DNA of 35,433 nucleotides from a virus (IMGVR_UViG_3300012007_000007:1-35433), one strand, 5' to 3'; shown: positions 14,391 through 33,415, counted from the stretch's first letter. Program-made: numbers and translations. The notes: generated from the sequence alone by a model not told the origin.

Positions 14391-14756
14391 ATGACACGCG
14401 TCCTGCCGCACATATACAAGGCGATGTACCTGTCCATCTTCATCGCCTTCGCACGCAAGATTATAGATAAGGTCAGCCTGCTGTTCGACGAGTGCGTCCC
14501 CATCGTAAACGAGGATGACGAGGACTGGTACGCAATCAGGCTATACCACAAGTTCTTCATATACAGCAACATATCCAAGCAGGCCGCGAGGAACCTGGCC
14601 ATGCAGATTTACAGGGAAGTCCCGGCACTCCGCGGGCATATCGAGGTTGTACAGCACGAGGACCCGTTGGAAACCCCGGTTTCCGAGGTCGGCGGTCTGT
14701 CCAAGGAAGAGCTCGACACCATCTACGACATTTTCTCCACGTTCGAGGAAGATTAG
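14391..14756 (+). CDS. N-terminal tag family protein
   Basis: IYKAMYLSIFIAFARKIIDKV; AAGGAG RBS. Confidence 0.8.
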   Translation: MTRVLPHIYKAMYLSIFIAFARKIIDKVSLLFDECVPIVNEDDEDWYAIRLYHKFFIYSNISKQAARNLAMQIYREVPALRGHIEVVQHEDPLETPVSEVGGLSKEELDTIYDIFSTFEED

Positions 14757-14773
14757 TTCAGCAGCGGAAACGG

Positions 14774-14800
14774 GAAAGGGCGGCCTCCGGCCGCCCTTTC
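14774..14800. terminator. bidirectional terminator hairpin
   Basis: gaaagggcggcc-tcc-ggccgccctttc between convergent genes. Confidence 0.8.
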
Positions 14801-14818
14801 TGTACATATGGAACGAGA

Positions 14819-15574
14819 CTAGATGCCGCTCCCTTCCTTCGCTCCGGAAATCCAGTCCAGTACCGGAAATTCCGGGAGGTCCCTGATGGTGCCGTCAATA
14901 TCCACCATCACGCGGGTTGTCAGGCCGTGAACCAGGTCGTCGAGTTCCACGGATACCTCGCTCCCGTCGTCGAGAAACACCGTACCGTTGAATCCGTACG
15001 GATACAGGTTGCGGTCCTGCATGAAGTTCAGTTCGGACAGATACGACGAGTGTTCCCTCTCGTCGCAGATTATCTTCATCCGGACACGTTCAGCGCCGCG
15101 GCAGCCCTCCACTATGCATACCGGCCTTTCCAGGAGTGCCCGGGAAACCTCCGCATTGACGTGCGGCTGCAGGTTCTTGAAGAACCGCCTCGTGTCCGCC
15201 GTAAGTACGTACCCGTCCACTTCCGGCTTCTCGTTGCCGAAACTGTCAGTGAACATGCTCCGGCAATACAGCCTGTCGACCTTGTACATGAGCCCCGGGA
15301 TGGCGACGGAGAACAGGTACAGCGATTTCTGTTTCTGGTACGGTACCATGCCAATCTCGTGGATTGGGTATTCGCGCGGGTTGAGTTCTATCCCGGTTTC
15401 CTCCCGGAGTTCCCGGAGTGCAGCAACCAGCGGAGTCTCCCCATCTTCCAGGTGGCCCTTGGGAATGTCGTACGACATCTCCGGGCCTCCCGGGCGGTCC
15501 GTGGGGTGGCATGCCAGTATTCCCCCGTTTTCCCGGTCAAATACGATAAATCCGCATGACAGTTCCTTAGGCAT
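14819..15574 (-). CDS. Nudix hydrolase with C-terminal extension
   Basis: Nudix box GHLEDGETPLVAALRELREETGI. Confidence 0.92.
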   Translation of the reverse strand: MPKELSCGFIVFDRENGGILACHPTDRPGGPEMSYDIPKGHLEDGETPLVAALRELREETGIELNPREYPIHEIGMVPYQKQKSLYLFSVAIPGLMYKVDRLYCRSMFTDSFGNEKPEVDGYVLTADTRRFFKNLQPHVNAEVSRALLERPVCIVEGCRGAERVRMKIICDEREHSSYLSELNFMQDRNLYPYGFNGTVFLDDGSEVSVELDDLVHGLTTRVMVDIDGTIRDLPEFPVLDWISGAKEGSGI

Positions 15575-15981
15575 CAGAACCCCATTTCCTTTGCCTCGTC
15601 CCTTGCCCGGCTAACGAGGTCAACATTTGCCTCGTAGCCGCGCATCGCCATGTCGAGCGCCTGCTGGTGAGGAAGGGTGATTTCCTTCACGGCATCCTCC
15701 CGGTCCATTCCAGGTACCTTCGCCTGCGCCCCGTTGATGACGTTCTCGGCGAGCTTCCTGCGGATGTAGGACGGGTCGCAGTCCGCCAGGCTCGCCTTGC
15801 GGATAGGAACGTTCATGTACGGGTTTCCTTTCGATGGGGTGGACTCGAACAGCGGCTTTGCCTTCCCGCACTTGCACTTGCAAGGCGTTGAGCGGACCTT
15901 GTCCCGAATCCTGACGATTGCCAGGACGATGATTCCGACGTATGCCGTAACATACAGTACCTTGAAGAACTTATCCTTCAT
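15574..15981 (-). CDS. membrane-anchored hypothetical protein
   Basis: GAGGAGG RBS; N-terminal TM helix then CKCKC. Confidence 0.7.
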   Translation of the reverse strand: MKDKFFKVLYVTAYVGIIVLAIVRIRDKVRSTPCKCKCGKAKPLFESTPSKGNPYMNVPIRKASLADCDPSYIRRKLAENVINGAQAKVPGMDREDAVKEITLPHQQALDMAMRGYEANVDLVSRARDEAKEMGF

Positions 15982-16837
15982 TTTTGCATTCCTCCTCGCC
16001 AAAGAGTTCCCTCATGGCTGGTTCAGTTTTAAAAATCGGGCCGACCCCGTCGAAGATGACCTGGTCCAGGTTTGCGATATCCCTGAACGGCGGCAGTTCC
16101 GGGTACTCGGTGACCGAGCGGACGCACGTGCCGCCCTCCCCGAAAATCTTCTCGATTACGTCAGGAGGGACGTTGCGGGACTTCATGTACTCCACGTCAA
16201 GCTGCACCTCTCGCACCTTGCGGAACGCGGTGAGTCCGTACTTGTCGCCGTAGGCGCACTTGTTCCAGTCAACTCCACGCTCCAGCATCATGGCCAGGCG
16301 CTCGTCGCTGTTCTTTCCCGCGAGTTCCCTGTTGGAGAACACGGTCCTAGCGACGTTGGAGATGGAGTTCTTTATCGCGTCCTTCTGGCGCCAGATAAGC
16401 ACCTTCAGTACGTCATCCTTGGTAACCCCGTAAGAGCGGGCGTCGAACGTGGCCAGCCTGTCTTCACGGTGCCTGCCGCTCGCCCGCAGGCTTTCGTTGA
16501 ATGCAGCGGTAGCAACGGACGCCGCTATCGAATCCAGCTTGTGGCACTTCCTGCCGAAAGGAACCTTGCGCGGGGCGATGACGACCGTTATCTCGTCGGA
16601 CTGTGTATAGACGACTACCGGGCAGAACTCCCCGATAAGAGCCTCCACGGCAGCCTTCATCGCATTCACTATGTCTTCGCAGAACGGCTTGTCCTTGCGC
16701 TTGTACGGCCTGGTGAACGTGTGGAAGGCACGCCCGTCGACACGGATGATGCAGTACTCGTCCTCCGGTATCACCATGTTGTAGGTATACGGGATTTCCA
16801 GCTTCTTGCAGTAATCACCCAAAGTCTCGCTGCTCAT
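15971..16837 (-). CDS. thg1: tRNA(His) guanylyltransferase Thg1 / Thg1-like 3'-5' polymerase
   Basis: IIRVDGRAFHTFT, YTQSDEIT, FDAR, WRQKDAIKNS; start ATG 16837 with GAGG RBS. Confidence 0.93.
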   Translation of the reverse strand: MSSETLGDYCKKLEIPYTYNMVIPEDEYCIIRVDGRAFHTFTRPYKRKDKPFCEDIVNAMKAAVEALIGEFCPVVVYTQSDEITVVIAPRKVPFGRKCHKLDSIAASVATAAFNESLRASGRHREDRLATFDARSYGVTKDDVLKVLIWRQKDAIKNSISNVARTVFSNRELAGKNSDERLAMMLERGVDWNKCAYGDKYGLTAFRKVREVQLDVEYMKSRNVPPDVIEKIFGEGGTCVRSVTEYPELPPFRDIANLDQVIFDGVGPIFKTEPAMRELFGEEECKNEG

Positions 16838-17007
16838 AGAATTACCTCGCGATTTCCTTTCCCGGTATACACCACTGGCTCCACGTCCCGTCGCATTTCC
16901 TTGCTCGCTGCAATCGACGCCTTCAGCCATGCTATGGTGCGGTCGATTCCGTACTCCGCCGCCAGCTCCAGGAGCTGGTCGATTTCCGATGTTGTTTCTA
17001 TTGGCAT
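16834..17007 (-). CDS. 57-aa helical protein (not in ORF track)
   Basis: AAGAGG RBS; MPIETTSEIDQLLELAAEYG...; ATGA overlap with thg1. Confidence 0.6.
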   Translation of the reverse strand: MPIETTSEIDQLLELAAEYGIDRTIAWLKASIAASKEMRRDVEPVVYTGKGNREVIL

Positions 17008-17071
17008 TTGTACCTCTTCTTGTAGAATTCCCGGTATATTCCGCCGGTTTTGGGGTCACGATATACTTCCA

Positions 17072-17308
17072 TCAGAATCCCTCCCTGAAATCGGGGGTGT
17101 CCGGAAGGTAGATTCCCGGGGCCGGTTCGTACAACGGCATGTTTTTCTTGTGGAATTCCCGTTCGATGTCCAGTCGCTTCCTGGCGTCGACTGCGCTCTG
17201 AAGGAGCTGCTTGGATGTCGTAAAGCCTAGCTCACGCACAAGCCCCATGATTTCTTCCATCGGTTCGTTACATGTTGGCGCCATATCATTCTCCAGTGCA
17301 GTGGACAT
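17072..17308 (-). CDS. hypothetical protein (leaderless)
   Basis: ATG 5 nt after class I motif. Confidence 0.7.
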   Translation of the reverse strand: MSTALENDMAPTCNEPMEEIMGLVRELGFTTSKQLLQSAVDARKRLDIEREFHKKNMPLYEPAPGIYLPDTPDFREGF

Positions 17309-17313
17309 GCCCC

Positions 17314-17326
17314 AAATATAGCAATT
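17314..17326 (-). promoter_or_regulatory. class I promoter motif
   Basis: AATTGCTATATTT-GGGGC-ATG on the minus strand. Confidence 0.75.
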
Positions 17327-17344
17327 TCCTTCCCATTCGACTGT

Positions 17345-17351
17345 ATAAACT
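17345..17351 (+). promoter_or_regulatory. class II promoter ATAAACT
   Basis: 7 nt before ATG 17359. Confidence 0.65.
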
Positions 17352-17358
17352 GGGTTTT

Positions 17359-18405
17359 ATGACCGGATTTCCCGACATAACGCCACTTTTCCTGGAAATC
17401 GCCGCCTGCCCTGACCCGATGCGCAGGGCGATTACCGAGGCGTGCGGGAAGCTCCTCGAGGGGATAGGTCCTTCTTTCACAGAACTGAGCAGGTACCTCA
17501 GGGAAATCAACGAGCCTTCCCCGGCATATCCGGAAAGGTTCGCCGATGAATGGAACTCCCGTAACGAGACGGGGAGGGTCGAGGGCGTACTGCACTTCCT
17601 TTCCGCCGGTACCCCGGAAGCCGTCGAGTCCTTCACCGACATACTGAACCTGGCGCTAGGAAAGCGCGTACCGCTGGCCGAACCGCTGTCGGACAGGGCA
17701 AGGGATGAAATAGACGGGCTTACCGGAAAGGAGCTGTTCAGGCTGAAGGATATCCTGCTTTCCGGGGACACCTCCCGGGAAACCGTGTCCGATGTCCTGG
17801 ACATGGTCCCGCAGACGGCCATGGAAGTGCTCGGGATAAGCATGGGTAACTGGGAGAACTCCGACGAGAGGAACCTGACCCTCCCGGATACCCCCGGGGA
17901 GTCCAGGGTAATCAACGGGTGGCTCGTCCACAACTCCGACAGGGCCAATAGGATTTACGAGGAAGGGTTCCGCAATGGGAACCCGGTAGGATACCTGGCA
18001 TACGGGAAGGATGGCAGGAACGACGATGACGTGTATGCATTCGCGTATCTACTGAAGGACGCTCCAGCACCGGGAGAAAGAACCAGCGGGAACGGGCTGA
18101 AGTACACCTTCGACGGTCCCGGGGCGAGCATCGTGTTCAGGGGGAGCGGCAACGTGGTCCGCCACGCCGGGGATGCCGAGAGGCAAGTCATTTTCGACAA
18201 GAACGAGCCTACCGGGTGCTTCCTGGTGGCTTTCACCGGGAAACCGGGAACCGGCGGGTCTTACGACGAGCCGGGCTGGGGAGGATACGGGAAGAACCCG
18301 GGAAGGGCCTTGGTTTCCGGGAGGTACTACCGGGAATGCCTGGACTGGATTGGGAGGAACGGCGACGCATACGAGAGCCAGATGAAAAAATGGAACGCCG
18401 CATAA
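17359..18405 (+). CDS. putative ADP-ribosyltransferase-fold virion protein (paralog of 28928..29515)
   Basis: WLVHNSD..IYEEGF..YLAY..YAFAY..RHAGDAERQVIF; leader ends KLLEG. Confidence 0.5.
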   Translation: MTGFPDITPLFLEIAACPDPMRRAITEACGKLLEGIGPSFTELSRYLREINEPSPAYPERFADEWNSRNETGRVEGVLHFLSAGTPEAVESFTDILNLALGKRVPLAEPLSDRARDEIDGLTGKELFRLKDILLSGDTSRETVSDVLDMVPQTAMEVLGISMGNWENSDERNLTLPDTPGESRVINGWLVHNSDRANRIYEEGFRNGNPVGYLAYGKDGRNDDDVYAFAYLLKDAPAPGERTSGNGLKYTFDGPGASIVFRGSGNVVRHAGDAERQVIFDKNEPTGCFLVAFTGKPGTGGSYDEPGWGGYGKNPGRALVSGRYYRECLDWIGRNGDAYESQMKKWNAA

Positions 18406-18426
18406 ACATTGTACGAGGATAGACAA

Positions 18427-19428
18427 ATGACTGCATGTTGCGAGGGAATATCCGACAAATCACTTTCGACTGCCCTGCTCGAGGGATACCATGCACTCCT
18501 TGAGGCAAAGGTATGCAAGGAACTCCAGCCAATATTCAACTGGTTGCTACAGACCGGCGACTGGGTATACAAATCCGGCGGCACCCATTCCAACAAGCTC
18601 CAGATTAACGTAGAGCCGAAACTGCTGCCACTGGTCGACCAGCTGATGCGGGATGGGAAAATCAACCCGAAGGATGAAAAGGCATTCAAGCTCGGCATAA
18701 TTTTCACGTCGACCCCGCTGTCATTCAGGCGGGCGATTGATGGAATCCTGAGCGAAATCCGCGGGTGCTACCAGATAGCCGCGGCCCTGGAGCACGCGTA
18801 TTACGGGCACAACGGACAGGAAAACGCTTGGCTGAAAAAGGGAACCGAATTCATGGAAAAGTTCATGGACGGGCGTCCGCTAGACACCACCGGTTCCGAA
18901 TACACCATCAATGCCGTCACTGGAACGGAATCTCCCGAAGAACCAGACATGATTACCGTTACCGGAGAGGACGGCCAGACATGGCAAGTACCCAACTGGA
19001 AGAAGCACCAGGCGTTAGAAAAAAAGAAGAAACTGATGCAGTCCAGCTACAGTATCCCGGGAACCCCGATGATGGAAGGAATATTCAGCGATTTCGGCAA
19101 GAGGCTGGCCAGGGGAATAGTGGCCGCCGCGATGATAGGCGGGTTCATGGCCGGAAACGCCAGTGCGGCCGACACCGCCAAGCAAGCTAGCCCCGGGTCC
19201 GGAAAGGCAAAACCAGAGGTGAACGTAAAGACAATGAATACGAAGTCGGGCACGTTCACATCGGCGGACCTTAGCAACCTGTACATGAGCGAGGCGTACA
19301 ACAAACGTGTCCGTCAGCTGGTTGATGAGGAGTTGAAACGGAAACCCAATGGCGACATACAGTTCATTTACGATTTCGCATGCCTGCAGGCAATGGAGGA
19401 AATCGTTTCCGGCAAGCTGAAACCTTGA
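18427..19428 (+). CDS. putative virion protein with LLEG/LLEA leader and internal signal-peptide-like segment
   Basis: ATAAACA at 18402; GAGGA RBS; ALLEGYHALLEA. Confidence 0.65.
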   Translation: MTACCEGISDKSLSTALLEGYHALLEAKVCKELQPIFNWLLQTGDWVYKSGGTHSNKLQINVEPKLLPLVDQLMRDGKINPKDEKAFKLGIIFTSTPLSFRRAIDGILSEIRGCYQIAAALEHAYYGHNGQENAWLKKGTEFMEKFMDGRPLDTTGSEYTINAVTGTESPEEPDMITVTGEDGQTWQVPNWKKHQALEKKKKLMQSSYSIPGTPMMEGIFSDFGKRLARGIVAAAMIGGFMAGNASAADTAKQASPGSGKAKPEVNVKTMNTKSGTFTSADLSNLYMSEAYNKRVRQLVDEELKRKPNGDIQFIYDFACLQAMEEIVSGKLKP

Positions 19429-19440
19429 TTGTTTCAGCTG

Positions 19441-19453
19441 AATTGCTATATTT
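19441..19453 (+). promoter_or_regulatory. class I promoter motif
   Basis: AATTGCTATATTT followed by the hairpin aggtgtcgggaa-g-ttcccggcacct. Confidence 0.7.
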
Positions 19454-19499
19454 GAGGTGTCGGGAAGTTCCCGGCACCTTTCTTATTGGAAATGGAAAT

Positions 19500-19697
19500 A
19501 TGCAGAGAATCGACGTTGTATTCTGGATTATTATATTTTTGTGGGCATGTTCCAACATCGGAACTTACCTTCTATTCGGCGAGGCGGCGATAATCCCTTC
19601 CGACCTGGTATTCGTCGGATTCCTTCTCCTGCTCATCGTTGTATCCAAGATTTCCAAAAAAATCAACAGATGGCTAGGAACGAAGATATGGGAATAG
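19500..19697 (+). CDS. small two-TM membrane protein
   Basis: MQRIDVVFWIIIFLW...; two hydrophobic helices and a basic tail. Confidence 0.7.
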   Translation: MQRIDVVFWIIIFLWACSNIGTYLLFGEAAIIPSDLVFVGFLLLLIVVSKISKKINRWLGTKIWE

Positions 19698-20119
19698 GGC
19701 GGCTACTCGGGTCCATATACGGGGGACTCTACGTTCTCCTGGTCATCCACTATATACGTCTTCTGTACCACAAGCTGTTCCCCAAAATGCACTACGACTA
19801 CGACCGCGCATCGAAGTACATACTGGCCTATTTTCCTCCCGGAAGCCCCGGGATGCCACTGCTCGCGACCACGATGACCAACAAGAAAACGCTCGCCTGG
19901 CTCGAGAAGGCCCGGGCGACAATGCAGGCATACCTAATCAAGGGAACGATGCGTGTGGTTACCGACGAGGTACCGGAACTGGAAATCAATTATAGATGCG
20001 GTGGTCATGTCATAGCAATGCGCATGCTTACAGACGGTGTGCGTGGTTCCAAGTCCGAATTTGCCCAGGTAATAGCTGATATTTTTACCGAAGCAAAAGA
20101 GCTAGCCGCTAAAGGCTAG
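19688..20119 (+). CDS. N-terminal tag family protein (divergent)
   Basis: IYGGLYVLLVIHYIRLLYHKLFP. Confidence 0.7.
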   Translation: MGIGRLLGSIYGGLYVLLVIHYIRLLYHKLFPKMHYDYDRASKYILAYFPPGSPGMPLLATTMTNKKTLAWLEKARATMQAYLIKGTMRVVTDEVPELEINYRCGGHVIAMRMLTDGVRGSKSEFAQVIADIFTEAKELAAKG

Positions 20120-20126
20120 CCCAATT

Positions 20127-20318
20127 TCAAGCATATATCTCTTCTTCCTCGACTCCATACAAGGTATAGTTGGCGGAGTCTTCCATGGCTTTGTCGAACG
20201 CCTCCATGCATTTGTCGCACAGGTACCATGGGGTGGTTTCCACCGCGTTATACCAGAAGCAGTTGAGCATAGAGTAGGTCTTGCACTGCTCGCACCTACC
20301 GTATGACTTCAGGCTCAT
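20127..20318 (-). CDS. small zinc-finger protein
   Basis: CEQC...LCDKC; GGAGGA RBS. Confidence 0.65.
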   Translation of the reverse strand: MSLKSYGRCEQCKTYSMLNCFWYNAVETTPWYLCDKCMEAFDKAMEDSANYTLYGVEEEEIYA

Positions 20319-20709
20319 TCTGTTTCCTCCTTGCCAGCCATTCTTCCATTATGGCCGAATATCTTTCCGGTACGTCAGCAGGCTGGCACCTCCCGGCAAG
20401 CAGCTTTCTACGCCAGTAGTCCCAGGAACCGAAGGTCACCCCGAACTTCTCCAGAAACGCCTTCTTGTACTTCACGACGTACTGCTGGCACTGTTCCCGG
20501 TGGTTCTCGAAGTATCGCCGGCACTGCCTGGCGTTGGCGATTCTCCCCTTCTCGGAGTGCCTGTACTTCTTGTTGGCCACCTGGTTCCTGCGACGCCGCT
20601 CGGCTATTACCTGCTCGTGTATCGATGTTGTTGGCTTGTTAACTTTTCCTGGCATTTGGGCTGCCAGTGCCCTTTGCCACATGTCTTCCACAGACCCGTT
20701 CATCGGCAT
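20296..20709 (-). CDS. basic helical hypothetical protein
   Basis: AAGAGGA RBS; class I motif at 20769..20781. Confidence 0.7.
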   Translation of the reverse strand: MPMNGSVEDMWQRALAAQMPGKVNKPTTSIHEQVIAERRRRNQVANKKYRHSEKGRIANARQCRRYFENHREQCQQYVVKYKKAFLEKFGVTFGSWDYWRRKLLAGRCQPADVPERYSAIMEEWLARRKQNEPEVIR

Positions 20710-20768
20710 TGTTGCTTCCTCTTGATGTAATGTAGTTAGACCACGAGAAAAATATATTCCCTCTACAT

Positions 20769-20781
20769 AAATATAGCAAAA
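20769..20781 (-). promoter_or_regulatory. class I promoter motif
   Basis: TTTTGCTATATTT on the minus strand. Confidence 0.72.
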
Positions 20782-20847
20782 AAAACTTATTTCGCGATAG
20801 CGAATATATGATTTTTCTGCTTGTTTTTTGTGACTACATACAAATTT

Positions 20848-20870
20848 AAAAAGCCGTGCTGATGCACGGC
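20848..20870 (-). terminator. intrinsic terminator
   Basis: gccgtgc-atca-gcacggc-ttttt on the minus strand. Confidence 0.75.
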
Positions 20871-20897
20871 ATTCCAATGTCCTGTACTGGACCGTTC

Positions 20898-21470
20898 CTA
20901 CCATATCGTTTTCAACTCGGAAAGCATTGCCATGCGCACCCGGTTAATCACCTGCTCAAGCCGCTTGTCGGTAAGCATTCTGTCGACCTTGTCGATTCGG
21001 AACGTCCCCTTGCCGGCACCCAGCTCGAAGTTTTTCCCGAAACGTATGAGGCCTCGAGGATTCTTCGCGCGTACGGCCAGTTGCTTTCCCTGGACTTCTA
21101 TGTAGTTTTCCCCGAACGACACCACCTTGCTGATATTAACAATCCTGAAATTATCCTTGATGATTGGACCGTCGCCAATCATCCTGCTCTCACGCTCGTA
21201 TGTAAGAACGACCTTTCCCTTGTAATAGGCGTTCAGCTTCTTGAGTGTAGCCTTCTCCTCCGAACGGCTCACCTCCCGGTACTTGTCCTCGGCAACCCTC
21301 AGGGCATCCCTGGCCTTATCCCGGGCATCCCGGGCTTCCTGCAGTTTCTTGCTCGGAGTTGGAGTCACCTTGGCCATTTTCTCTGGTGTACTTGTAAACA
21401 GCATTTCCTCAATTACCGAAAAGTTAGGCTTGTGGTCGTTTCTTTTCTCGGTTTTAGTAGTATTTGTCAT
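20898..21470 (-). CDS. hypothetical protein
   Basis: AGGAG RBS; own promoter and terminator. Confidence 0.8.
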   Translation of the reverse strand: MTNTTKTEKRNDHKPNFSVIEEMLFTSTPEKMAKVTPTPSKKLQEARDARDKARDALRVAEDKYREVSRSEEKATLKKLNAYYKGKVVLTYERESRMIGDGPIIKDNFRIVNISKVVSFGENYIEVQGKQLAVRAKNPRGLIRFGKNFELGAGKGTFRIDKVDRMLTDKRLEQVINRVRMAMLSELKTIW

Positions 21471-21557
21471 GATTGCTCCTATCTAACAAGGCTTTGCCCA
21501 CCCAAGATGTTGCTCGGGCATTTTTCGCTACGAAATGAACGGGATTCAGCCTAGTTC

Positions 21558-21570
21558 AAATATAGCAAAA
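21558..21570 (-). promoter_or_regulatory. class I promoter motif
   Basis: TTTTGCTATATTT on the minus strand. Confidence 0.75.
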
Positions 21571-22166: not shown

Positions 22167-22188
22167 CAATAACTTGCCAAATGCCGGG

Positions 22189-25542: not shown

Positions 25543-26028
25543 CTACGCAGTCCATACCACGCCGTAATCTTTGCATAATTCCCGTACCTCGGAATATATC
25601 CGCCGGTAGACATCCTCCCGGAGATACCGGAATCCGTCCGGGGAATGCCTTCCATTGCACATCTCAGTACCTAGGTAAGTATGGATACACCCTGGATAGT
25701 TGCTCGATAGCGGGCGTCCTATCTTCATGCTGAACTCGCCCCGCTCGTGGACAATTGTCATCTGCAACTCAAGGGGCTTGGCTGCGGCGGCAACCCGGTT
25801 GAAGATGTCTGCCAGCCAGGTCGCGTCGCACTTCTCTACCAGGGCCAGTGCGATGTACACGTTCATCAGGGTCATCGAGTCTATCGTGGTCACGTACAGG
25901 ACAGTGTAGTATTCAGGATTACTGGTGATATTCCGGAAGCCCTTTCTCCCAGTAGGTGACAGGAGCTTCCTAAGCAGCCTCCGCAGGAAGTGCAGGGCGA
26001 TGGCAAGGTATACCGCAACCCGAATCAT
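25543..26028 (-). CDS. N-terminal tag family protein
   Basis: MIRVAVYLAIALHFLRRLLRKLLSP. Confidence 0.78.
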   Translation of the reverse strand: MIRVAVYLAIALHFLRRLLRKLLSPTGRKGFRNITSNPEYYTVLYVTTIDSMTLMNVYIALALVEKCDATWLADIFNRVAAAAKPLELQMTIVHERGEFSMKIGRPLSSNYPGCIHTYLGTEMCNGRHSPDGFRYLREDVYRRIYSEVRELCKDYGVVWTA

Positions 26029-26465
26029 GGCAGCACCTTCCTGACAATGCTCAAAATGTAGTCGAGACTCGGCTGTATGTCCGGGATTGTCCTTACGAAC
26101 GCTCCGGGGCGGTTTCCGTCCTCGTTGTTGCCCCTCTTGTAGTAGAATCCGATGTAGACGTACTCGTTGTTTTTCCAGAAGTAGGAGACGCCCGTCTTCA
26201 GACCGTACCGCGCGGCAATATCGTCGAGTTCTCCGTCGCTGGTAAAAGTGCCGCAGTTCGGCACCTGCTTGAGCGGTATGTACAGACGCTTGTTCCTTGC
26301 CATCGAGCCGAGTACCAGCTCGAACCCCAGGCACAGGGCCGTGCCCTCGAACGGTATCGGGCAAGTGCACATGAACGCCGGCGGCCTCGAGGACGGGAGG
26401 AGCTTCCATAAAAACCTCCGGAGGAACGACAGGAATATCAACAAGTAGCAAGCATTCCTCAGCAT
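26025..26465 (-). CDS. N-terminal tag family protein
   Basis: MLRNACYLLIFLSFLRRFLWKLLP. Confidence 0.78.
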   Translation of the reverse strand: MLRNACYLLIFLSFLRRFLWKLLPSSRPPAFMCTCPIPFEGTALCLGFELVLGSMARNKRLYIPLKQVPNCGTFTSDGELDDIAARYGLKTGVSYFWKNNEYVYIGFYYKRGNNEDGNRPGAFVRTIPDIQPSLDYILSIVRKVLP

Positions 26466-26890
26466 ATCTTCAGTCCATTTATTTGACGTTCGAGAACCTG
26501 CAAGTCACGATATAGTCGTTGTCTCTCAATCGGATTCAGTATACATGTAAACCCATGATATTCTCCACTAAGCAGGTATATCGGCCCCACGCCTACTATC
26601 TGCGACTCACCACGCTCCAATGTACTGTTTGGTTGCACATATATCAAGTCCTTCGTGTGGGCCCTCAATGCCTCGTACAGGTACTCCCGGTCCTGGGATG
26701 ATATGTCATTGGGCACGGAGCATAGATACATTATATGGCCTTCGTCAGTCCGGATAAACCATATGTTCTTGTCGTCATCCATCTTCATCTTGACAGGTTG
26801 CACCGGGATAATCCTGTCGACTACCTTCCTGAGGAAGGACAGGCAAATCAGCGCGTAGACCGGTGTCCTTATCGTTCTCAGGAGTTCCAT
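26459..26890 (-). CDS. N-terminal tag family protein
   Basis: TPVYALICLSFLRKVVDRIIP. Confidence 0.78.
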   Translation of the reverse strand: MELLRTIRTPVYALICLSFLRKVVDRIIPVQPVKMKMDDDKNIWFIRTDEGHIMYLCSVPNDISSQDREYLYEALRAHTKDLIYVQPNSTLERGESQIVGVGPIYLLSGEYHGFTCILNPIERQRLYRDLQVLERQINGLKIC

Positions 26891-27300
26891 AGAATCTCCG
26901 ATGCCTTTCCGGCCACGTTCCTCGCGATTTTCCTGCGTTCCCCCTCGCTCAGGTTCGGGAACTTAATTAACCCACTGACTACAGCGAGCGCACTTCCCTT
27001 CAGGAACTTCATCTCCGAAAGGTTGTTGGGCGCACCGTACACCTTCGACCTGTTGTCCGCGGCATACTTCGCCAGTGCGTCGGCACCCATGTTGACTATG
27101 CGGAACCCCTCGAACTGGGTGACTCCGTAGTGGACGCCAGTCTTTACTTTCCTGCAAACTATAATCGGGCCATTCGCCAGGTGGACCGAATGGTACATGT
27201 CCCGGTCCCCAGAATACGACAGCTTCCCTACCATCCGGCGTACGAACCATATGGCTATTGCGATGTACAGTGCGTTGTAGATGCTGCGGGATAGTCTCAC
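26878..27300 (-). CDS. N-terminal tag family protein (leaderless GTG)
   Basis: IYNALYIAIAIWFVRRMVGKL; GTG 5 nt after class I motif. Confidence 0.78.
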   Translation of the reverse strand: MRLSRSIYNALYIAIAIWFVRRMVGKLSYSGDRDMYHSVHLANGPIIVCRKVKTGVHYGVTQFEGFRIVNMGADALAKYAADNRSKVYGAPNNLSEMKFLKGSALAVVSGLIKFPNLSEGERRKIARNVAGKASEILWNS

Positions 27301-27305
27301 GGCTC

Positions 27306-27318
27306 AAATATAGCAATT
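27306..27318 (-). promoter_or_regulatory. class I promoter motif
   Basis: AATTGCTATATTT-GAGCC-GTG. Confidence 0.75.
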
Positions 27319-27320
27319 TT

Positions 27321-27527
27321 CTACATGGCGACGAATATCCGCATGACTTCCTCCCGGACTTTCCCGGTCTCCTCCCGGGAAGCCGCCAGCTTGTGCTGGA
27401 GTTCCGCGATGATTCCGACCAGTTCCGCCCGGGACATGGTGGACAGCTGCTCCTCGGTGAGCTCGTCCACGTTCCTCGTCAGCTTGTCGCCGAGCCACTC
27501 GCCCAGCTTTGATATGTTGAATTGCAT
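27321..27527 (-). CDS. small coiled-coil protein
   Basis: 68-aa helical ORF filling the gap. Confidence 0.6.
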   Translation of the reverse strand: MQFNISKLGEWLGDKLTRNVDELTEEQLSTMSRAELVGIIAELQHKLAASREETGKVREEVMRIFVAM

Positions 27528-27578
27528 AGCGTGCAGTATGTTTATTCCGGGAAGAATTCCCGGTTTCTTACATTTTTC

Positions 27579-27929
27579 TTACAGATTGTTCTTCACTATC
27601 TGCATGAGCTCTTCCATGATGTCTTCGTCGTATATCATGCGTACAGTGTCCGACATCAGCTCGTAGACCCTGAACTTTGGTCTCTCCGACATTATGGTTA
27701 GAAACTCCGGGTTCCAGTCATGGTCCTCCATTTCGGACATGACCTTCCTGGCCTTCCTGTAGGAAGTGCTCCGGTATACGCGCACGGCTTCCTTATTCTC
27801 CACTCCAAGGAACACATAAACGGAATACTCGCGTCCTACCGGAACCAGTATCCTGTCCAGGAACCTCCGCAGGAACCCCAGGAATATCCCGAGGTAGCCG
27901 GCCAGGTATATCTGCCTGCTAGGTCCCAT
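27579..27929 (-). CDS. N-terminal tag family protein
   Basis: MGPSRQIYLAGYLGIFLGFLRRFLDRILVP. Confidence 0.75.
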   Translation of the reverse strand: MGPSRQIYLAGYLGIFLGFLRRFLDRILVPVGREYSVYVFLGVENKEAVRVYRSTSYRKARKVMSEMEDHDWNPEFLTIMSERPKFRVYELMSDTVRMIYDEDIMEELMQIVKNNL

Positions 27930-28653
27930 CGGCCTTCCCGGGTCTCTTCCTGAATTTCCTCTGTGCCGGCCTGTCCATCGAGGTCGCCATCCTGGACAGT
28001 GCATCGACTATGGGAACTACCGAGCGGAAGTCCTCCGACGCCTCCCGGGAATCCACGGACATGCCCGGGATTACCCGGGATGGTTTCCGGCCTATCCCCC
28101 GGAGCACCCGGGAACGGTCTATCGCCACCTCGTCCGGGGCAACCCTTATCGTGCGCAGGCTTACCGCCCACTCGGCAATCCTGTTCCTGCGGAAGATGTG
28201 CACGGTGGACAGCTCGACGTTACCCTCGCGCTGCCCGACGTCGAGCACGTAGTCATGGTCCACGCCGACACCGTTGTCCCTGGTGAGGAAGTGCCCCTTG
28301 AGGGGCATGCAGGCAGCCACCGCGTCATACAGCGCGGCCTGCCCGGCGACCTTCCCGTACGGGAACAGCTTCTCCATGGCCGCCTGCACCAGGCGGTTTC
28401 CGGCCTCCAGCACGGCGTGGTCTGACGACGGCTCCCAGTCCGCCAGCTTGCGGAGCATGGATACGAGCTCCGGGTCCGCCGAGGAGGTTGTCTTGACGGG
28501 TATCTTGGGGGGCGACTTGGGGGGCGACTTGGTGGGCGACTCGGGGGGCGACTCGGGGGGTTCCTCGGATTTCCCCGGGAGTTCCCGGGGCTTAGCCGGT
28601 TTCCTGCGGAGCCTGATGACTCCGAACTTCTTAACTGCCGTTTCTTTCTTCAT
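27919..28653 (-). CDS. hypothetical protein with Pro/Ser/Lys repeat linker (leaderless)
   Basis: ATG 5 nt after class I motif. Confidence 0.7.
   Translation of the reverse strand: MKKETAVKKFGVIRLRRKPAKPRELPGKSEEPPESPPESPTKSPPKSPPKIPVKTTSSADPELVSMLRKLADWEPSSDHAVLEAGNRLVQAAMEKLFPYGKVAGQAALYDAVAACMPLKGHFLTRDNGVGVDHDYVLDVGQREGNVELSTVHIFRRNRIAEWAVSLRTIRVAPDEVAIDRSRVLRGIGRKPSRVIPGMSVDSREASEDFRSVVPIVDALSRMATSMDRPAQRKFRKRPGKADGT
28505..28560 (-). repeat. 12-bp tandem repeat encoding PPES/PPES/PTKS/PPKS/PPK
   Basis: (gggggcgactyg)n, about 4.5 copies. Confidence 0.85.
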
Positions 28654-28856
28654 GCCACAAATATAGCAAAGTTGCTGAATGATTGCCATAGAAAAGCGAA
28701 ATCCATCGCCTCGGCGATGGACTTGTTCAGGTGCTTGATTTTTCTCGTGTACTTCTTCCTGTCCCGGACTATCCTGGTCCGGAGCGTGGCGCCGTTGCCG
28801 GTGCCGGCAATCCGTTCCTCCCGGAGTCTCCGGGATTCTTTCGCTTTCTTGGCCAT
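28650..28856 (-). CDS. ArfA/BrfA-like alternative ribosome rescue factor
   Basis: AGGAGG RBS; MAKKAK...LRTRIVRDRKKYTRKIKH then a hydrophobic tail; terminator inside the ORF. Confidence 0.6.
   Translation of the reverse strand: MAKKAKESRRLREERIAGTGNGATLRTRIVRDRKKYTRKIKHLNKSIAEAMDFAFLWQSFSNFAIFVA
28659..28670 (-). promoter_or_regulatory. class I promoter motif
   Basis: TTTGCTATATTT-GTGGC-ATG. Confidence 0.75.
28692..28721 (-). terminator. intrinsic terminator inside the ArfA-like ORF
   Basis: TCCATCGC-CGAG-GCGATGGA-TTTCGCTTTT on the minus strand. Confidence 0.75.
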
Positions 28857-28889
28857 TGGTTTTCCTCCTGTTCGGTGAAAGTTTATAAT

Positions 28890-28905
28890 AAATATAGCAT
28901 AAACT
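28890..28905. promoter_or_regulatory. interlocked divergent promoters: TGCTATATTT (-) and ATAAACT (+)
   Basis: aaatatagcataaact. Confidence 0.65.
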
Positions 28906-28927
28906 GTCTGAAAGAAGGAGAACCCCG

Positions 28928-29515
28928 ATGGAACCAAGACTGATAGAGGCGCTGATGACCGGGTACCGGGCGATACTGGAAGCCCAGGATGCCGGTATGA
29001 GGAAGCTCGAGTCCTACCTGAACAGGAAACCCGACGCGGACATCAAGGACGATGACGGGTACATCACCACCGCGAAGAAGGCGTACAACTACTTCAAGGA
29101 TGCCAGGATGGTAGAGGACCACTGGGCCGTGCACTTCACGAGCGAGGAAGTCTACCCGAAGATAAAGAAGTCCGGGTTCTCCCACGGAACGTCCGTGCTG
29201 GACCACCTGGCATACACCTCGCAGTATCCTGGGAACCGCACCAAGCAGGGGTGGCTGTTCGCCGTTCCCGTTGACACGGCCTACCTGAAGCACTACGACA
29301 TGGGATACGGCGACTGCGCCTTCCTCATAAAGACCGACGGCGTGATAGCGAAGCACGTCGGGGAAAGGGACCTGGAACTCCTGTTCCGCCGCAAGGACGT
29401 GAAGGAGACCATCCCGTTCTACTACGACCGTGAAGAGAAGAAATGGGTAGTCGACGACGATAAGAAGGAGTCCTTCGACACCATAGGCGAGATTGTCGAC
29501 AAGTACGCTGTCTAG
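28928..29515 (+). CDS. putative ADP-ribosyltransferase-fold virion protein
   Basis: WAVHFTS..IKKSGF..HLAY..GWLFA..YGD..KHVGERDLELLF; leader TGYRAILEA; AAGGAG RBS. Confidence 0.55.
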   Translation: MEPRLIEALMTGYRAILEAQDAGMRKLESYLNRKPDADIKDDDGYITTAKKAYNYFKDARMVEDHWAVHFTSEEVYPKIKKSGFSHGTSVLDHLAYTSQYPGNRTKQGWLFAVPVDTAYLKHYDMGYGDCAFLIKTDGVIAKHVGERDLELLFRRKDVKETIPFYYDREEKKWVVDDDKKESFDTIGEIVDKYAV

Positions 29516-29694
29516 CCGGTTACAAAGAACACAATGATTGAAACAGGTATGCCGGACAACAGGCTGACCATCAGGGAATGCCGTCTCCACCACCTGCTGG
29601 CGAACAAGCTCGGCAGGTAGCAGCAGACGGCCATGCACAGGCAGTAGGCGACTACGGCCAGGCGGAGCCTGACTGAAAGGTCCAGCGTCACCAT
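29512..29694 (-). CDS. small hydrophobic protein
   Basis: 60-aa ORF adjacent to the upstream stop. Confidence 0.45.
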   Translation of the reverse strand: MVTLDLSVRLRLAVVAYCLCMAVCCYLPSLFASRWWRRHSLMVSLLSGIPVSIIVFFVTG

Positions 29695-29695
29695 G

Positions 29696-30130
29696 CTAGT
29701 TATTCTCGCGGTATGCCTGGCGGAGCCTGTTGGCCAGCATCGGGATGAGGCGGTGCTTTTCCGGGGGGAGAAGCTTTGTCAGCGGCACGTTCCACACGAC
29801 ATTCTCGGACGGTGGATTCCCGGCATCCGCCGAAGCGATACGCTTCCATCCCCTCACACCAGACATGATGTCGGCAAGCACGCTCATGGCATCCTCGGTC
29901 TGACTCCCGCGGGTCGTTGTCGCCACGTGGTAGTACGTACCGTCCCTGTGGACCAGGAACACCTTGACGTCGCCGTTCTTCCTGGGCAGCCTGAGCAGGT
30001 AATCGTTCGCGTCGTCCATGGTAATCGGGCGAATCTTCCTGAAGATACGGCGGGCGCCGTAGAGGAAGATGGACAGGTACATGGCGTTGAACATGTGGGT
30101 CTTGAAATTGTATGGTAGCTCGCTAAACAT
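29696..30130 (-). CDS. N-terminal tag family protein
   Basis: MFNAMYLSIFLYGARRIFRKIRP. Confidence 0.78.
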   Translation of the reverse strand: MFSELPYNFKTHMFNAMYLSIFLYGARRIFRKIRPITMDDANDYLLRLPRKNGDVKVFLVHRDGTYYHVATTTRGSQTEDAMSVLADIMSGVRGWKRIASADAGNPPSENVVWNVPLTKLLPPEKHRLIPMLANRLRQAYRENN

Positions 30131-30557
30131 CGAACTCTATTTCCTTGGTGTGGATTGTGAATGGTATGTCGCCAGTCTCTATGCGGCTGACCAGCTCGGC
30201 GACAGTCTCTATCGGAATGAGCGTCGTCTCGGTGTAGGTGGAAGTCCCTCCCTTCAGGGGCATGTTCACCTCGGTGGAGTAGGCCACGTTCAGTGCCGGC
30301 CTGCCGTCGACGAGGAGCTCCTTGGTGTCCCGGACGGCCATCACCGTCCTGGCGGCCCCGTTCGCCTTGCGCTCCAGTATGAGCTGGGAGGCCACGACTA
30401 TCGCTGCATACTTGCGGATGCTCTCCCGTATTCCCGGGAAGTCCGGGAAGGACAGCCCGTGCTCCCTGTATGTGTCGAGGTTGACCTGTCCGTCACCCGG
30501 GAGGGGGACGATTCTCGCTGTCGTCTTTCCGTTATCTTGTTGCATACTATCTGCCAT
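30123..30557 (-). CDS. hypothetical protein
   Basis: 144-aa ORF in operon. Confidence 0.7.
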   Translation of the reverse strand: MADSMQQDNGKTTARIVPLPGDGQVNLDTYREHGLSFPDFPGIRESIRKYAAIVVASQLILERKANGAARTVMAVRDTKELLVDGRPALNVAYSTEVNMPLKGGTSTYTETTLIPIETVAELVSRIETGDIPFTIHTKEIEFDV

Positions 30558-30602
30558 TGAAATTTAAGTTCATCGAAAGTTGGTGATTCTTCTGCCGGGA
30601 AT

Positions 30603-30944
30603 TCACTTTCCCGGGGTTCCCTGTGTCTCATCTCGTGTTCTTTCCTGTATTAGTCGCTCGCGGTTCCTCGTCAGGATTCCGCGGATTTCCATCTTCTCGT
30701 ACTCCGGCATCTTGGAGGAATACTTCTTCAGACCGGCGGTAAAGAACCGGCGAAGCAGCGTGAAGAACTGGGAGTTCCTCCGCTTCTCGTCGTCATATCC
30801 CGTCTTGGACGTGATTTCCGCCGCGCCAGCCTTGGCGTAGTCGTACATCTTCTCGACCCTAGGTACGGGCATTCCGTAGACGATTGCCTGGTCGACAATC
30901 ATCCTGGCCACCCTTTCCGGATATTTGTTGTTCTGTTCGCTCAT
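30603..30944 (-). CDS. hypothetical protein (leaderless)
   Basis: ATG 5 nt after class I motif. Confidence 0.75.
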   Translation of the reverse strand: MSEQNNKYPERVARMIVDQAIVYGMPVPRVEKMYDYAKAGAAEITSKTGYDDEKRRNSQFFTLLRRFFTAGLKKYSSKMPEYEKMEIRGILTRNRERLIQERTRDETQGTPGK

Positions 30945-30949
30945 GCCAC

Positions 30950-30962
30950 AAATATAGCAAAA
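30950..30962 (-). promoter_or_regulatory. class I promoter motif
   Basis: TTTTGCTATATTT-GTGGC-ATG. Confidence 0.78.
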
Positions 30963-31016
30963 ATCGTAGATTATAAACGTAGTGCGGGTTGAAAAATTCT
31001 TAAAAAGACGGAAAAG

Positions 31017-32180
31017 ATGGAAAACTTACAAAAAACTTACAATAAGCTCCCGAACAAGTGGCTGAACTGCGCCATACCGGGAGTCGCGCTGACAACCTGC
31101 ATAGGCTCGGTCTACTGCTGGAGCCAGTTCTCGGCCAACCTGATGGAGGCCTTCGGGATATCCCGGTTCGCCACGGACATCGGGTTCACGCTCATCATAT
31201 TCTTCCTCGGGATGTTCGCCGCCCTGTTCGGGAGCACCATAGAGAGGAACCCCCGGGTGGGCGCCTGGATTTCCACCGCGGTATTCATCACCGGCTTCAT
31301 CCTGCTCGGGGTAGCCGTAATGACCGGTACGCTCCCGCTGTTCTACGTGGCTACCGCCACCATCGGGGCAGGAACCGGAATCGGCTACGTAACTCCCGTA
31401 AAGACCCTGATGGCGTTCTTCGCGGGCCACAAGGGGATGGCCTCCGGTCTCGCCATAACGGGATTCGGCCTGGCAAAGTTCATCGCCTCCCCTGTTATCG
31501 AGTGGCTATTGGCCACGGTGCCGCTCCATACCATGTTCTTCATGATGGGCGGAATCTATGCCGCGGTCATGACCGCATCCGCCATGCTCCTCAGGAAGCA
31601 CCCCGACTGCACCGGGACGTGCAGCAGGTACGACATGTTCAGCTACAGGTACATGCTGAAGATGAAGGAGTGGTGGGCGATATGGTTCATGTTCATGGTG
31701 AACATATCCTGCGGACTCGCCATCATATCCCAGGAGAAGTCCCTGCTTCTCGCACTGGGCATCGCCAGCGTGGCGGCAATCCTTTCGGGGACCGCCCTGG
31801 CCAATGCCGGGGGAAGGATTGGGTTCTCCACCCTGTCCGACAAGATAGGCCGGAAGGCCTCCTACCACTTCGTATGCAGCTTCGGCATAATGGGCGCCCT
31901 GTTCTGCATTACCGGGAATCCCGTGATGTGCGTAGTCGGAATCCTCCTGTGCGAGGCGGCATACGGCGGCAACTTCAGCGTGCTCCCCAGCCTGCTCGAG
32001 AAGAGGTACGGAATCAACAACGCTTCCCGCATACACGCGATGACCCTGACCGGGTGGAGCGTCGGCGGGATATTCGGGCCCCTCCTGGCCAACACGTTCA
32101 CCGGGACTACGCTATACATGGTGCTGGCAATACTCTACTTCATCGCCTTCACCGTGATGGAGATGAACGTCAGGAAGTAG
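31017..32180 (+). CDS. MFS transporter, oxalate/formate antiporter (OFA, YhjX-like) family
   Basis: About 12 TM; CIGSVYCWS, GIGYVTPVKTLM, GMASGLAITGFG, NAGGRIGFSTLSDKIGRK, YGGNFS. Confidence 0.9.
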   Translation: MENLQKTYNKLPNKWLNCAIPGVALTTCIGSVYCWSQFSANLMEAFGISRFATDIGFTLIIFFLGMFAALFGSTIERNPRVGAWISTAVFITGFILLGVAVMTGTLPLFYVATATIGAGTGIGYVTPVKTLMAFFAGHKGMASGLAITGFGLAKFIASPVIEWLLATVPLHTMFFMMGGIYAAVMTASAMLLRKHPDCTGTCSRYDMFSYRYMLKMKEWWAIWFMFMVNISCGLAIISQEKSLLLALGIASVAAILSGTALANAGGRIGFSTLSDKIGRKASYHFVCSFGIMGALFCITGNPVMCVVGILLCEAAYGGNFSVLPSLLEKRYGINNASRIHAMTLTGWSVGGIFGPLLANTFTGTTLYMVLAILYFIAFTVMEMNVRK

Positions 32181-32202
32181 GAATCTGCCGTAAAATACAT
32201 GG

Positions 32203-32227
32203 AATTCCCGGGAGGTTCCCGGGAATT
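32203..32227 (+). terminator. hairpin terminator (CCGGGA-GGT-TCCCGG family)
   Basis: aattcccggga-ggt-tcccgggaatt-tt. Confidence 0.72.
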
Positions 32228-32238
32228 TTGCTATATTT
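32226..32238 (+). promoter_or_regulatory. class I promoter motif
   Basis: TTTTGCTATATTT-CGGAT-ATG. Confidence 0.75.
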
Positions 32239-32243
32239 CGGAT

Positions 32244-32489
32244 ATGCAGAACGTAGAAGTTAAAACAGAAACCATCGTAACTACGACATGCGACTTATGC
32301 GGAGGCACCGTATCGCCGCGATGGGAAGGCACGACAATGGCCGGCTCGCTCGAGACGAGGAATGGCGAGGTAATCAACTATGGACTGAGCCTTGTCCTGA
32401 GCAAGTGTACCAATCTCAGCTGTCATGACGTATGCGGCTCATGCCTCAAAGATATTTTAGGCAAGATTCGGGACCGCATATGCGACTGA
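32244..32489 (+). CDS. small zinc-ribbon protein (leaderless)
   Basis: TCDLCG...HDVCGSC. Confidence 0.7.
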   Translation: MQNVEVKTETIVTTTCDLCGGTVSPRWEGTTMAGSLETRNGEVINYGLSLVLSKCTNLSCHDVCGSCLKDILGKIRDRICD

Positions 32490-32493
32490 CCAC

Positions 32494-33000
32494 ATGAATA
32501 CCGGCATATACACAGCCCTGTACCTTGCCATATTCATCAGCTTCCTGCGGAGGCTGATTGCCAGGGTCATGTCCCCGGTACGCCGTAGACGCCTGAAGCG
32601 AAGGGCAATGCCGAAAGAGAACAGCAGGCTTGCCCTGTTCCTTAGCGTAGAAATTGCAGGGACAGACACATTAGAATACTACAGGTACCACATCCAGAAT
32701 CTTCCTCCCATAATCCACCGGTATGACGCGCTTGTACTCTGTGACGTACTCAACTCGAATGCCAAGGTAAAGGCTCTCCCGGCCGCCATTACTCGCATGA
32801 TGAAACCTTATTCAGAAGAAAAGACATGCACCATGGTCAGCTTCTACTGCCGTCCCGTTCCTTATCCAGACGAAGACATCCCCAGCTCGATATTGTCAGC
32901 CATCGGATATTCAGTCGACAATATCTACGGACTGATTGGCCAGACAATAGACGATATCTATGACAACGCCATGGAGCCGGAGCTGCGTAATGCGAATTGA
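32494..33000 (+). CDS. N-terminal tag family protein
   Basis: MNTGIYTALYLAIFISFLRRLIARVMSP. Confidence 0.8.
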   Translation: MNTGIYTALYLAIFISFLRRLIARVMSPVRRRRLKRRAMPKENSRLALFLSVEIAGTDTLEYYRYHIQNLPPIIHRYDALVLCDVLNSNAKVKALPAAITRMMKPYSEEKTCTMVSFYCRPVPYPDEDIPSSILSAIGYSVDNIYGLIGQTIDDIYDNAMEPELRNAN

Positions 33001-33415
33001 GACACTGGCATACATAGCGATAGGACTTCACTTCGCCCGGAAAATCCTGCACAAGACCGCGTGCTTCACACCTGTCATAATCGACTACAAGGAAGGCGCT
33101 ACCCACTGGGTAAACGTGAAACTGAGGACCTGGGAAGGGAAAGAGAAGACATACGAGCGCATAATGCTCATACCTCCCGGGAAACTCACCAAGGACGAGA
33201 TGAAGAAAATACTCAACCGTCTTAACTTCGGAGGTTGGAAGGAGATATTCCAGCACTGGGAGACAGTAGTTCTCTCTGCATCGTTCAGCATATCGAACTC
33301 CTTCCCGGCGACACGCAATGCGGCCGGGAAGGACTACATTATTTTCCGCGTGACTTACGGCCTCGGATTATTCAACAGGCTGCGCAACGCGTTCCTCCTG
33401 CCCGCCGGGGACTAG
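32990..33415 (+). CDS. N-terminal tag family protein
   Basis: MRIETLAYIAIGLHFARKILHKT. Confidence 0.75.
   Translation: MRIETLAYIAIGLHFARKILHKTACFTPVIIDYKEGATHWVNVKLRTWEGKEKTYERIMLIPPGKLTKDEMKKILNRLNFGGWKEIFQHWETVVLSASFSISNSFPATRNAAGKDYIIFRVTYGLGLFNRLRNAFLLPAGD

Follow-up and report, generated by a model that had tools for sequence, protein, structure and literature searches.

Small, fast-evolving phage proteins that share an N-terminal peptide have been described before. The internal proteins of phage T4 (IPI, IPII, IPIII and Alt) are encoded by clustered genes and carry a short common peptide on otherwise dissimilar small proteins. This capsid targeting sequence is about 10 residues long, ends in a Glu-containing site for the prohead protease and is removed; the genes are expressed late. 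Polymorphic toxins and effectors combine a conserved N-terminal "address" with a diversifying C-terminal "payload," and the in-plane amphipathic anchors of MinD, FtsA, MreB, Noc and hepatitis C virus NS5A place a short, terminal, cationic helix and a flexible linker next to a soluble domain. Lipid-binding helices usually conserve only their physicochemical pattern. Here, we analyze the initial 35,433 bases (IMGVR_UViG_3300012007_000007:1-35433, hereafter the window) of one virus record (222,157 bp, 54% G+C). In them, a sequence-only reading had noticed about 10 genes with one N-terminal tag fused to apparently unrelated domains.

Our results reveal that the tag family is real and common in rumen giant phages, where it recurs in dozens of copies on contigs of 100-470 kb under no name other than "hypothetical protein." A shared terminal peptide on divergent paralogues is already known from the T4 internal proteins, and by that analogy the present family appears comparable in principle and different in the chemistry of the tag, the small body of the proteins, their apparent early expression and their range. 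Instead of the T4 peptide, its members carry a hydrophobic and basic helix of 22 residues without acidic residues, and their genes lie behind host-type promoter boxes. Compared with polymorphic toxins, the proteins are far smaller and phage encoded, with no secretion-system context, no immunity-gene pairing seen and no toxin domain detected. The tag also differs in part from in-plane anchors, since only its C-terminal half is amphipathic and its residue identities are nearly invariant.

Members, distribution and novelty

A profile hidden Markov model (HMM) was built from 14 segments picked by regular expression and run on all 3,115 stop-to-stop frames of the genome in six-frame translation, a check that the sequence-only reading had proposed. 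The separation was clean: 20 members scored 23-45 bits, and the next match scored 6.9 bits. A second own-genome profile search returned the same 20 together with one marginal match, the gene starting at 19688. Nine of the clear members fall inside the window at 36-45 bits (Table 1), and the remaining 11 lie outside it (37337+, 39461-, 39678-, 39989-, 40300-, 75104-, 89473+, 89892+, 90311+, 90738+ and 95406+; signs give the strand). All ten starts listed by the earlier reading exist, nine of them as strong members and 19688 as a marginal one, and the family is larger than that reading had supposed. In every genome member, the tag begins 1-13 residues past the start codon. With 21 of about 309 called genes, the family makes up about 7% of the gene complement.

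Beyond this genome, a 34-position tag profile was run with HMMER on 1.84 billion representative proteins (E<=1e-3) and matched 177 cluster representatives. Among the 150 matches listed, 147 are proteins of 43-176 amino acids (aa) with an N-terminal motif, and in 142 of 144 representatives the tag lies within the first 17 residues. The other three (P0023, P0141 and P0157), the sole false positives among those listed, contain "VSIPLWFLRN" repeats and look like translated DNA repeat arrays. A separate search limited to proteins of 80-2000 aa gave 104 matches. All were between 80 and 194 aa long, not one contained a Pfam domain, and no source gave any of them a name. A stretch of 20 kb from a 472-kb contig contains 12 tag genes, and one of 10 kb from a 112-kb contig contains seven. 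When nine other rumen phage records were searched with the phage's own genome as positive control, the tag was absent from all of them, including four that carry the 1111-aa neighbor gene discussed below. Five of the nine are jumbo phage records found via phrog_9677, a widespread gene that is not lineage specific, so these five are little informative. Taken together, the searches indicate a large family whose range does not extend beyond part of a rumen phage group.

The proposed addressing system was said to be undescribed, and for the tag family we agree. None of the ten window members matched Pfam or PHROG above threshold, and among the 144 representatives there was no credible domain from either source, only isolated single-member matches (Gp23 and DUF4632; phrog_14392 and phrog_138). 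For example, the protein encoded at 14391 has no Pfam or PHROG match, and the jackhmmer component to which its C terminus belongs otherwise contains only metagenomic relatives. Literature searches found no paper describing the tag family, and look-ups in the ESM Atlas gave no usable match. One metagenomic protein of 109 aa (P0029) carries two tandem tags, a degenerate one at the N terminus and a good one at residue 42, which might reflect the fusion of a pair or a misplaced start.

Selection on the tag

The tag has the signature A-x-Y-x-x-I-x-[LI]-x-F-x-R-[KR]-x-x-x-[KR], followed by a Pro/Arg-rich linker. Across 144 nonredundant relatives, the frequencies are 96% for A(-2), 100% for Y(0), 92% for I(+3), 98% for L/I(+5), 92% for F(+7), 100% for R(+9), 87% for K/R(+10) and 100% for K/R(+14). 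Half of these relatives have His at +6, and Pro peaks directly after the helix (33% each at +17 and +18). Asp and Glu stay at about 0-3% at every tag position and at 1-12% at linker positions +16 to +20, with no conserved Glu. The consensus drawn from the window is essentially right on this larger set, except that its first Tyr is not conserved (15%). The earlier observation that the fixed residues exceed what a generic transmembrane helix needs is borne out by Y, R and K/R at 100% and by A, I and F at 92% or more. Together, these data support the conclusion that the N-terminal element is a specific, strongly selected motif and not a generic hydrophobic anchor.

Among the genome members, identity between tags at codon positions 1, 2 and 3 is 0.48, 0.62 and 0.38, respectively. 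The third position is the least conserved, and selection therefore acts on the protein and not on the DNA; the same pattern rules out a DNA- or RNA-level element as the cause of tag conservation. Orthologue comparisons at three levels of divergence gave identities of 0.91, 0.84 and 0.75 for the tag versus 0.86, 0.72 and 0.37 for the rest, the last pair coming from the band of 40-60% overall identity. The products of 25543..26028 and 32494..33000 are 89% and 77-89% identical to their orthologues (P0047 and P0011-P0016, respectively). At greater distance, that of 26025..26465 shares 59% of its residues with P0134 (tag 81%, remainder 56%), and that of 29696..30130 shares 40% with P0117 and P0156 (71-81% and 31%). 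Faster divergence of the C-terminal part explains how its similarity could be lost. Since the tag residues remain near-invariant where the rest of the protein has lost its similarity, recognition by a specific partner would fit better than plain lipid binding.

A probable single, diversifying family of early proteins

We consider it probable, at roughly 60%, that these genes constitute a single family of small early proteins, specific to a lineage of uncultured rumen jumbo phages and megaphages and greatly expanded there, and that its helix docks the members to a common partner or surface. In the architecture of the proteins, a helix of 22 residues, 2-16 residues past Met, is followed by a flexible linker of about 10 residues rich in Pro, Arg and Ser, and then by a compact α/β domain of about 100 aa. 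The genes would multiply by tandem duplication, after which the C-terminal domain would diverge fast, past sequence recognition between most paralogues, with the helix held under strong purifying selection. As a common docking or localization element, the helix could keep many C-terminal domains at one conserved partner or surface, which would be either a groove on a protein or the inner membrane on its cytoplasmic side, and the variable domains would provide different specificities in early infection. We infer a common origin of all C termini, docking as the role of the helix, early expression and a role for the family in conflict with the host.

Narrow size, the lack of known domains, the lack of tagless C termini, tandem arrays and a shared opening topology favor duplication with rapid divergence over domain shuffling. 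The tag-bearing proteins are all 43-194 aa long, with a mean of 131 and a standard deviation of 24, compared with 215 ± 217 aa for all genes of the genome. The genes are packed into tight arrays in which stop and start codons overlap; 4+1 of them lie at 25.5-27.9 kb, four at 39.1-40.3 kb and four at 89.5-91.2 kb. Furthermore, some paralogues are still recognizably related: the C termini of 89473, 89892, 90311, 90738 and 95406 are mutually homologous, as are those of 39989 and 40300. The claim that the C termini lack similarity holds for the nine window members, each of which forms its own cluster in BLASTP and iterated jackhmmer, but fails genome-wide on account of these two groups. In larger sets, the C termini of 176 sequences fell into 80 BLASTP clusters and those of 201 sequences into 62 jackhmmer components.

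Structure prediction agrees with this architecture. In an AlphaFold2 model (28 sequences), the helix at residues 3-24 has a predicted local distance difference test score (pLDDT) of 56-59 and is unpacked from the domain, the linker at residues 25-30 falls below 50, and the domain at residues 35-139 is mostly above 90. As modeled, the tag sits on a flexible linker ahead of a separate variable domain, in line with the sequence-only reading, and the C-terminal domain is confidently predicted to be α/β, apparently of no known fold. In a second model, that of 32990..33415, the tag helix covers residues 2-22 and is followed by β-β-α-β-β-α. In these models, two clusters without detectable sequence similarity begin alike, with a β-hairpin, a long helix and a strand in that order, and the residue numbers of these elements almost coincide.

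Promoter sequences place the family among the genes that are probably expressed early. The 12-mer TTGCTATATTTG occurs in 38 perfect copies in the genome, often 2-6 nt before an ATG or GTG, a spacing that suggests leaderless mRNAs. It contains TAnnTTTG, which we take to be a Bacteroidota-type -7 element. A same-strand box of this type lies less than 2.5 kb upstream of 19 of the 21 tag genes, which agrees with the earlier statement that most of them belong to such promoter units. The boxes suggest that the tag genes share a promoter class with many nonstructural genes. Phage families that expand and diverge in this manner are often involved in conflict with the host. Because of the promoter boxes, the location in the half of the genome rich in small open reading frames (ORFs), and the expansion and divergence of the family, its members may be early proteins that engage host targets. 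Early-type promoters and rapid divergence are also what lies behind the roles that the sequence-only reading had suggested, and the proteins might serve in anti-defense, exclusion or host takeover.

Several observations weigh against the reading of one diversifying, docked family. The second AlphaFold2 model is of low confidence (pLDDT 55.6), and so the shared topology is only suggestive. The C termini of the 20 paralogues fall into 15 jackhmmer components and hhalign joins only few clusters, which makes their common ancestry presumptive. Tag similarity follows array membership overall (p=0.0004), driven by the single array with homologous C termini; among neighbors without C-terminal homology, tags are not significantly closer than between arrays (0.46 versus 0.43, p=0.09). 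Finally, we sought a partner and identified none, and the conserved 1111-aa neighbor is also found in tag-free phages.

That neighbor, an ORFan with no Pfam or PHROG match (Table 1), has homologues adjoining tag genes in the relatives L098 (57% identity) and L100 (33%), and it is syntenic in three tag-bearing lineages. Its homologues occur in four tag-free IMG/VR records as well (48-49% identity, one of the records being 91% complete), which excludes it as an obligate partner. An AAA+ ATPase encoded at 8865-10769, a further candidate partner, is absent from three complete tag-free records, and another tag-free record has a weak, AAA-only match.

A more specific version, which we consider possible but not probable, is that the helix is a dedicated sorting signal for one receptor, such as a docking protein, chaperone, unfoldase or translocase encoded by phage or host, or a phage-built compartment. 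If true, rumen giant phages would run their own protein-addressing system, bringing 20 or more different small effector domains to one site when they begin to infect their Bacteroidota hosts. Whichever partner is involved, a near-invariant helix of 22 residues offers a simple experimental handle on the site or partner. It could give initial access to the "dark" early proteome of rumen jumbo phages, which probably infect Bacteroidota and are hard to study. Should the partner turn out to be encoded by the host, a hub targeted by such phages would come to light.

Alternative explanations

The sequence-only reading had favored a portable addressing tag, that is, a mobile helix module recombined onto unrelated effector domains to form a modular delivery library. 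For most C termini, neither BLASTP nor jackhmmer nor hhalign detects any similarity to the others, and a disordered linker between tag and domain, as modeled, would tolerate swapping. We nevertheless find this explanation doubtful, and its central claim of modular, unrelated domains is not supported. No tagged protein exceeds 194 aa or has a known domain, and uniform size and tandem arrays also speak against it. Moreover, no tagless homologue of any C terminus was seen in the genome or in the relatives' loci compared, and none was found for the C terminus of the 89-95 kb subfamily in 5.8 billion proteins. At the DNA level, the tags of different paralogues agree at only about 50% of positions, and third-position identity shows no excess within arrays over that between arrays (0.57 versus 0.52) of the kind expected from gene conversion between tags. 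With tag DNA this divergent and no such excess, there is neither a substrate for nor a trace of recent recombination or gene conversion.

Alternatively, the helix could be an oligomerization or structural element with no addressing role, forming homo- or hetero-oligomeric bundles or packing back on its own domain. By our reading, the tag shows two heptad-like stripes on opposite faces (Y0, I3, F7, K10 and K14; A-2, L1, L5, R9, L12 and L16), small residues recur at i and i+4, and the N-terminal half, with hydrophobic residues on every side, needs to be buried in some place. Against packing on the domain, AlphaFold2 leaves the helix detached, with low confidence in that region. A four-copy complex prediction for the 89473 protein scored 0.01, which speaks neither for nor against oligomerization. 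On balance, we regard this explanation as unlikely.

Still less convincing is a true N-terminal transmembrane signal-anchor, which would make all members bitopic with the N terminus out and the C terminus in. The element is N terminal and hydrophobic, the three or four Arg/Lys residues that follow agree with the positive-inside rule, and the predicted helix has 22 residues. Fourteen ordinary signal-anchor proteins of this phage likewise have an N-terminal hydrophobic segment followed by basic residues. Yet, their cores are about 19-20 residues long, whereas all 20 tags except m32509 (18 residues) have an uncharged core of 11-15 residues, most often 12. The core of the tag is bracketed by Arg or Lys on either side, often has His inside and is much less hydrophobic. 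The uninterrupted stretch of about 18-20 hydrophobic residues expected of a single-pass signal-anchor is not found. Nineteen-residue sums, estimated on the Hessa biological hydrophobicity scale, range from +3.0 to +11.5 for the tags, whereas those of the 14 N-terminal anchors in this genome lie between -4.4 and +2.0. Most helices of the phage's major facilitator superfamily (MFS) transporter lie below +2 on the same scale.

Cross-matching gave a similar picture. The tag profile matches none of the 14 anchors and found almost only the tag family in 1.84 billion proteins; the earlier reading had proposed that its idea would fall if the HMM matched generic anchors equally well, which is not so. 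Generic anchors, furthermore, need no invariant Y, F or R. Secretory signal peptides fit no better. The core is followed by R-[KR]-x-x-[RK]-[KR] (100%, 87%, 57% and 100% basic) with no A-x-A-like pattern as in Sec substrates, and the basic pair comes after the hydrophobic core, not before it as in Tat substrates. Where a "membrane anchor or docking helix" had been suggested, a membrane-spanning anchor appears unlikely on hydrophobicity grounds, and the part that stands is that the element is no generic anchor. The hydrophobic moment averages 0.41 versus 0.23 for shuffles, but only eight of 20 tags exceed 95% of their shuffles, and the net charge is +2 to +5. Amphipathicity resides in the C-terminal half (R-K-x-x-R-K), and the first 12-14 residues are hydrophobic all round, without a polar face.

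It is most improbable that the tag is a T4-type virion-loading signal that sends proteins into the prohead for injection: its N-terminal position agrees, but acidic residues are nearly absent (Asp/Glu about 0-3%), no short peptide ending in a Glu-containing prohead-protease site or other conserved protease-type site is present, and the genes lie behind host-type promoter boxes in the small-ORF region, far from the 145-222 kb block. Leader peptides of ribosomally synthesized and post-translationally modified peptides and double-glycine leaders were likewise rejected; what would be the "core" is a folded domain of 100 aa, and a GG site is lacking.

Genomic context

The window members and the features next to them are listed in Table 1.

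Table 1. Tag-family genes of the window and adjoining features, in positions counted from the first base of the window
Feature	Position	Strand	Details
Family member, 121 aa	14391..14756	+	Tag HMM 37.9 bits; tag helix coded at about 14415-14480
Probable divergent member, 143 aa, marginal	19688..20119	+	E=0.005, 15.3 bits in own-genome search; missed by first HMM
ORFan, 1111 aa	22189..25524	-	Directly downstream of four-gene array; conserved HHCGN and CAACGxCPFN motifs
Family member, 161 aa, last gene of four-gene tandem array	25543..26028	-	Tag HMM 41.6 bits
Family member, 146 aa, third gene of array	26025..26465	-	Tag HMM 42.5 bits
Family member, 143 aa, second gene of array	26459..26890	-	Tag HMM 36.5 bits; orthologue P0009
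Family member, 140 aa, GTG start, first gene of array	26878..27300	-	Tag HMM 42.3 bits
TTGCTATATTTG, promoter-like box heading the four-gene array	27305..27316	-	Perfect 12-mer copy; ends 4 nt before GTG
Family member, 116 aa	27579..27929	-	Tag HMM 37.7 bits; orthologue P0056, 92% identical
Family member, 144 aa (132 aa from ATG at 30094)	29696..30130	-	Tag HMM 39.4 bits; box at 30960 upstream
Family member, 168 aa	32494..33000	+	Tag HMM 39.9 bits; downstream of box at 32228
Family member, 141 aa, start overlaps end of preceding member	32990..33415	+	Tag HMM 39.8 bits

The marginal gene at 19688 is probably a divergent family member, judging from the residues Y, I, H, R, K and P that stand in register with the tag consensus. 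A promoter box lies 245 nt upstream of it, at 19443. A small plus-strand ORF with two hydrophobic stretches (19380-19697) ends 10 nt inside the start of 19688, an arrangement that suggests translational coupling. Start and stop codons also overlap between 25543..26028 and its adjoining gene, and the box at 28669 precedes 27579..27929 by 740 nt. Outside the window, two minus-strand tag genes (39461-39120 and 39678-39310, within 39120-39678 of the genome, or L001:4120-4678) share about 150 nt in different reading frames, the former starting within the 3' part of the latter. Both tags are good, and conserved relatives exist for the upstream gene.

Within the window, TTGCTATATTTG boxes are found, for example, at 8571, 17324(-), 19443, 21568(-), 27316(-), 28669(-), 30960(-) and 33421. 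Eight boxes of the genome, at 11795, 19443, 21568(-), 54730(-), 91476, 130947, 150796(-) and 168982(-), are followed directly by a G+C-rich hairpin and a T-run, and the 30-nt sequence downstream of those at 21568, 54730 and 91476 is almost identical three times. Such units may give rise to short RNAs or act as combined terminator-promoter cassettes.

The source record has an estimated completeness of 78% (CheckV). Its recognizable genes are few and phage-like (RNA ligase, Thg1-like tRNA-His guanylyltransferase, NAD-dependent ligase, HNH endonuclease and transposase), and the majority of the large proteins are without any match. A near-identity DNA search of a phage collection with 12 kb of the window as query matched nothing. 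Close relatives at the protein level come from metagenome assemblies only, with the sample labels SHIW14, WILK20, STEW19 and XIEF21, which we read as sheep and cattle rumen studies. Shine-Dalgarno sequences are absent upstream of the genes, and because of this and the -7-type promoter element the host is probably a member of the Bacteroidota. A large block of minus-strand genes occupies 145-222 kb and is taken to hold the structural genes, as judged by gene size and strand only; the tag genes belong to the other half of the genome, where small ORFs abound.

Several neighboring genes are of interest in their own right. The window encodes a Thg1-like tRNA-His guanylyltransferase (15971-17059, minus strand; phrog_4717, E=2.5e-51) and an RNA ligase (238-1425, plus strand; phrog_562), which together suggest a tRNA repair or protection toolkit. 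A transposase (phrog_506) is located near the end of the genome, at 218872-220254, and TnpB/IS605-type genes (Cas12f1-like_TNB) are found in or near the tag arrays of relatives (L004, 12006-13238; L100, 7842-9158). Finally, the tag genes of the window flank a multi-pass MFS-type transporter of 387 aa (31017-32180, plus strand; phrog_2034, E=4e-10), which is 73% identical in a related phage and whose homologue in L098 matches PF07690 (MFS_1).

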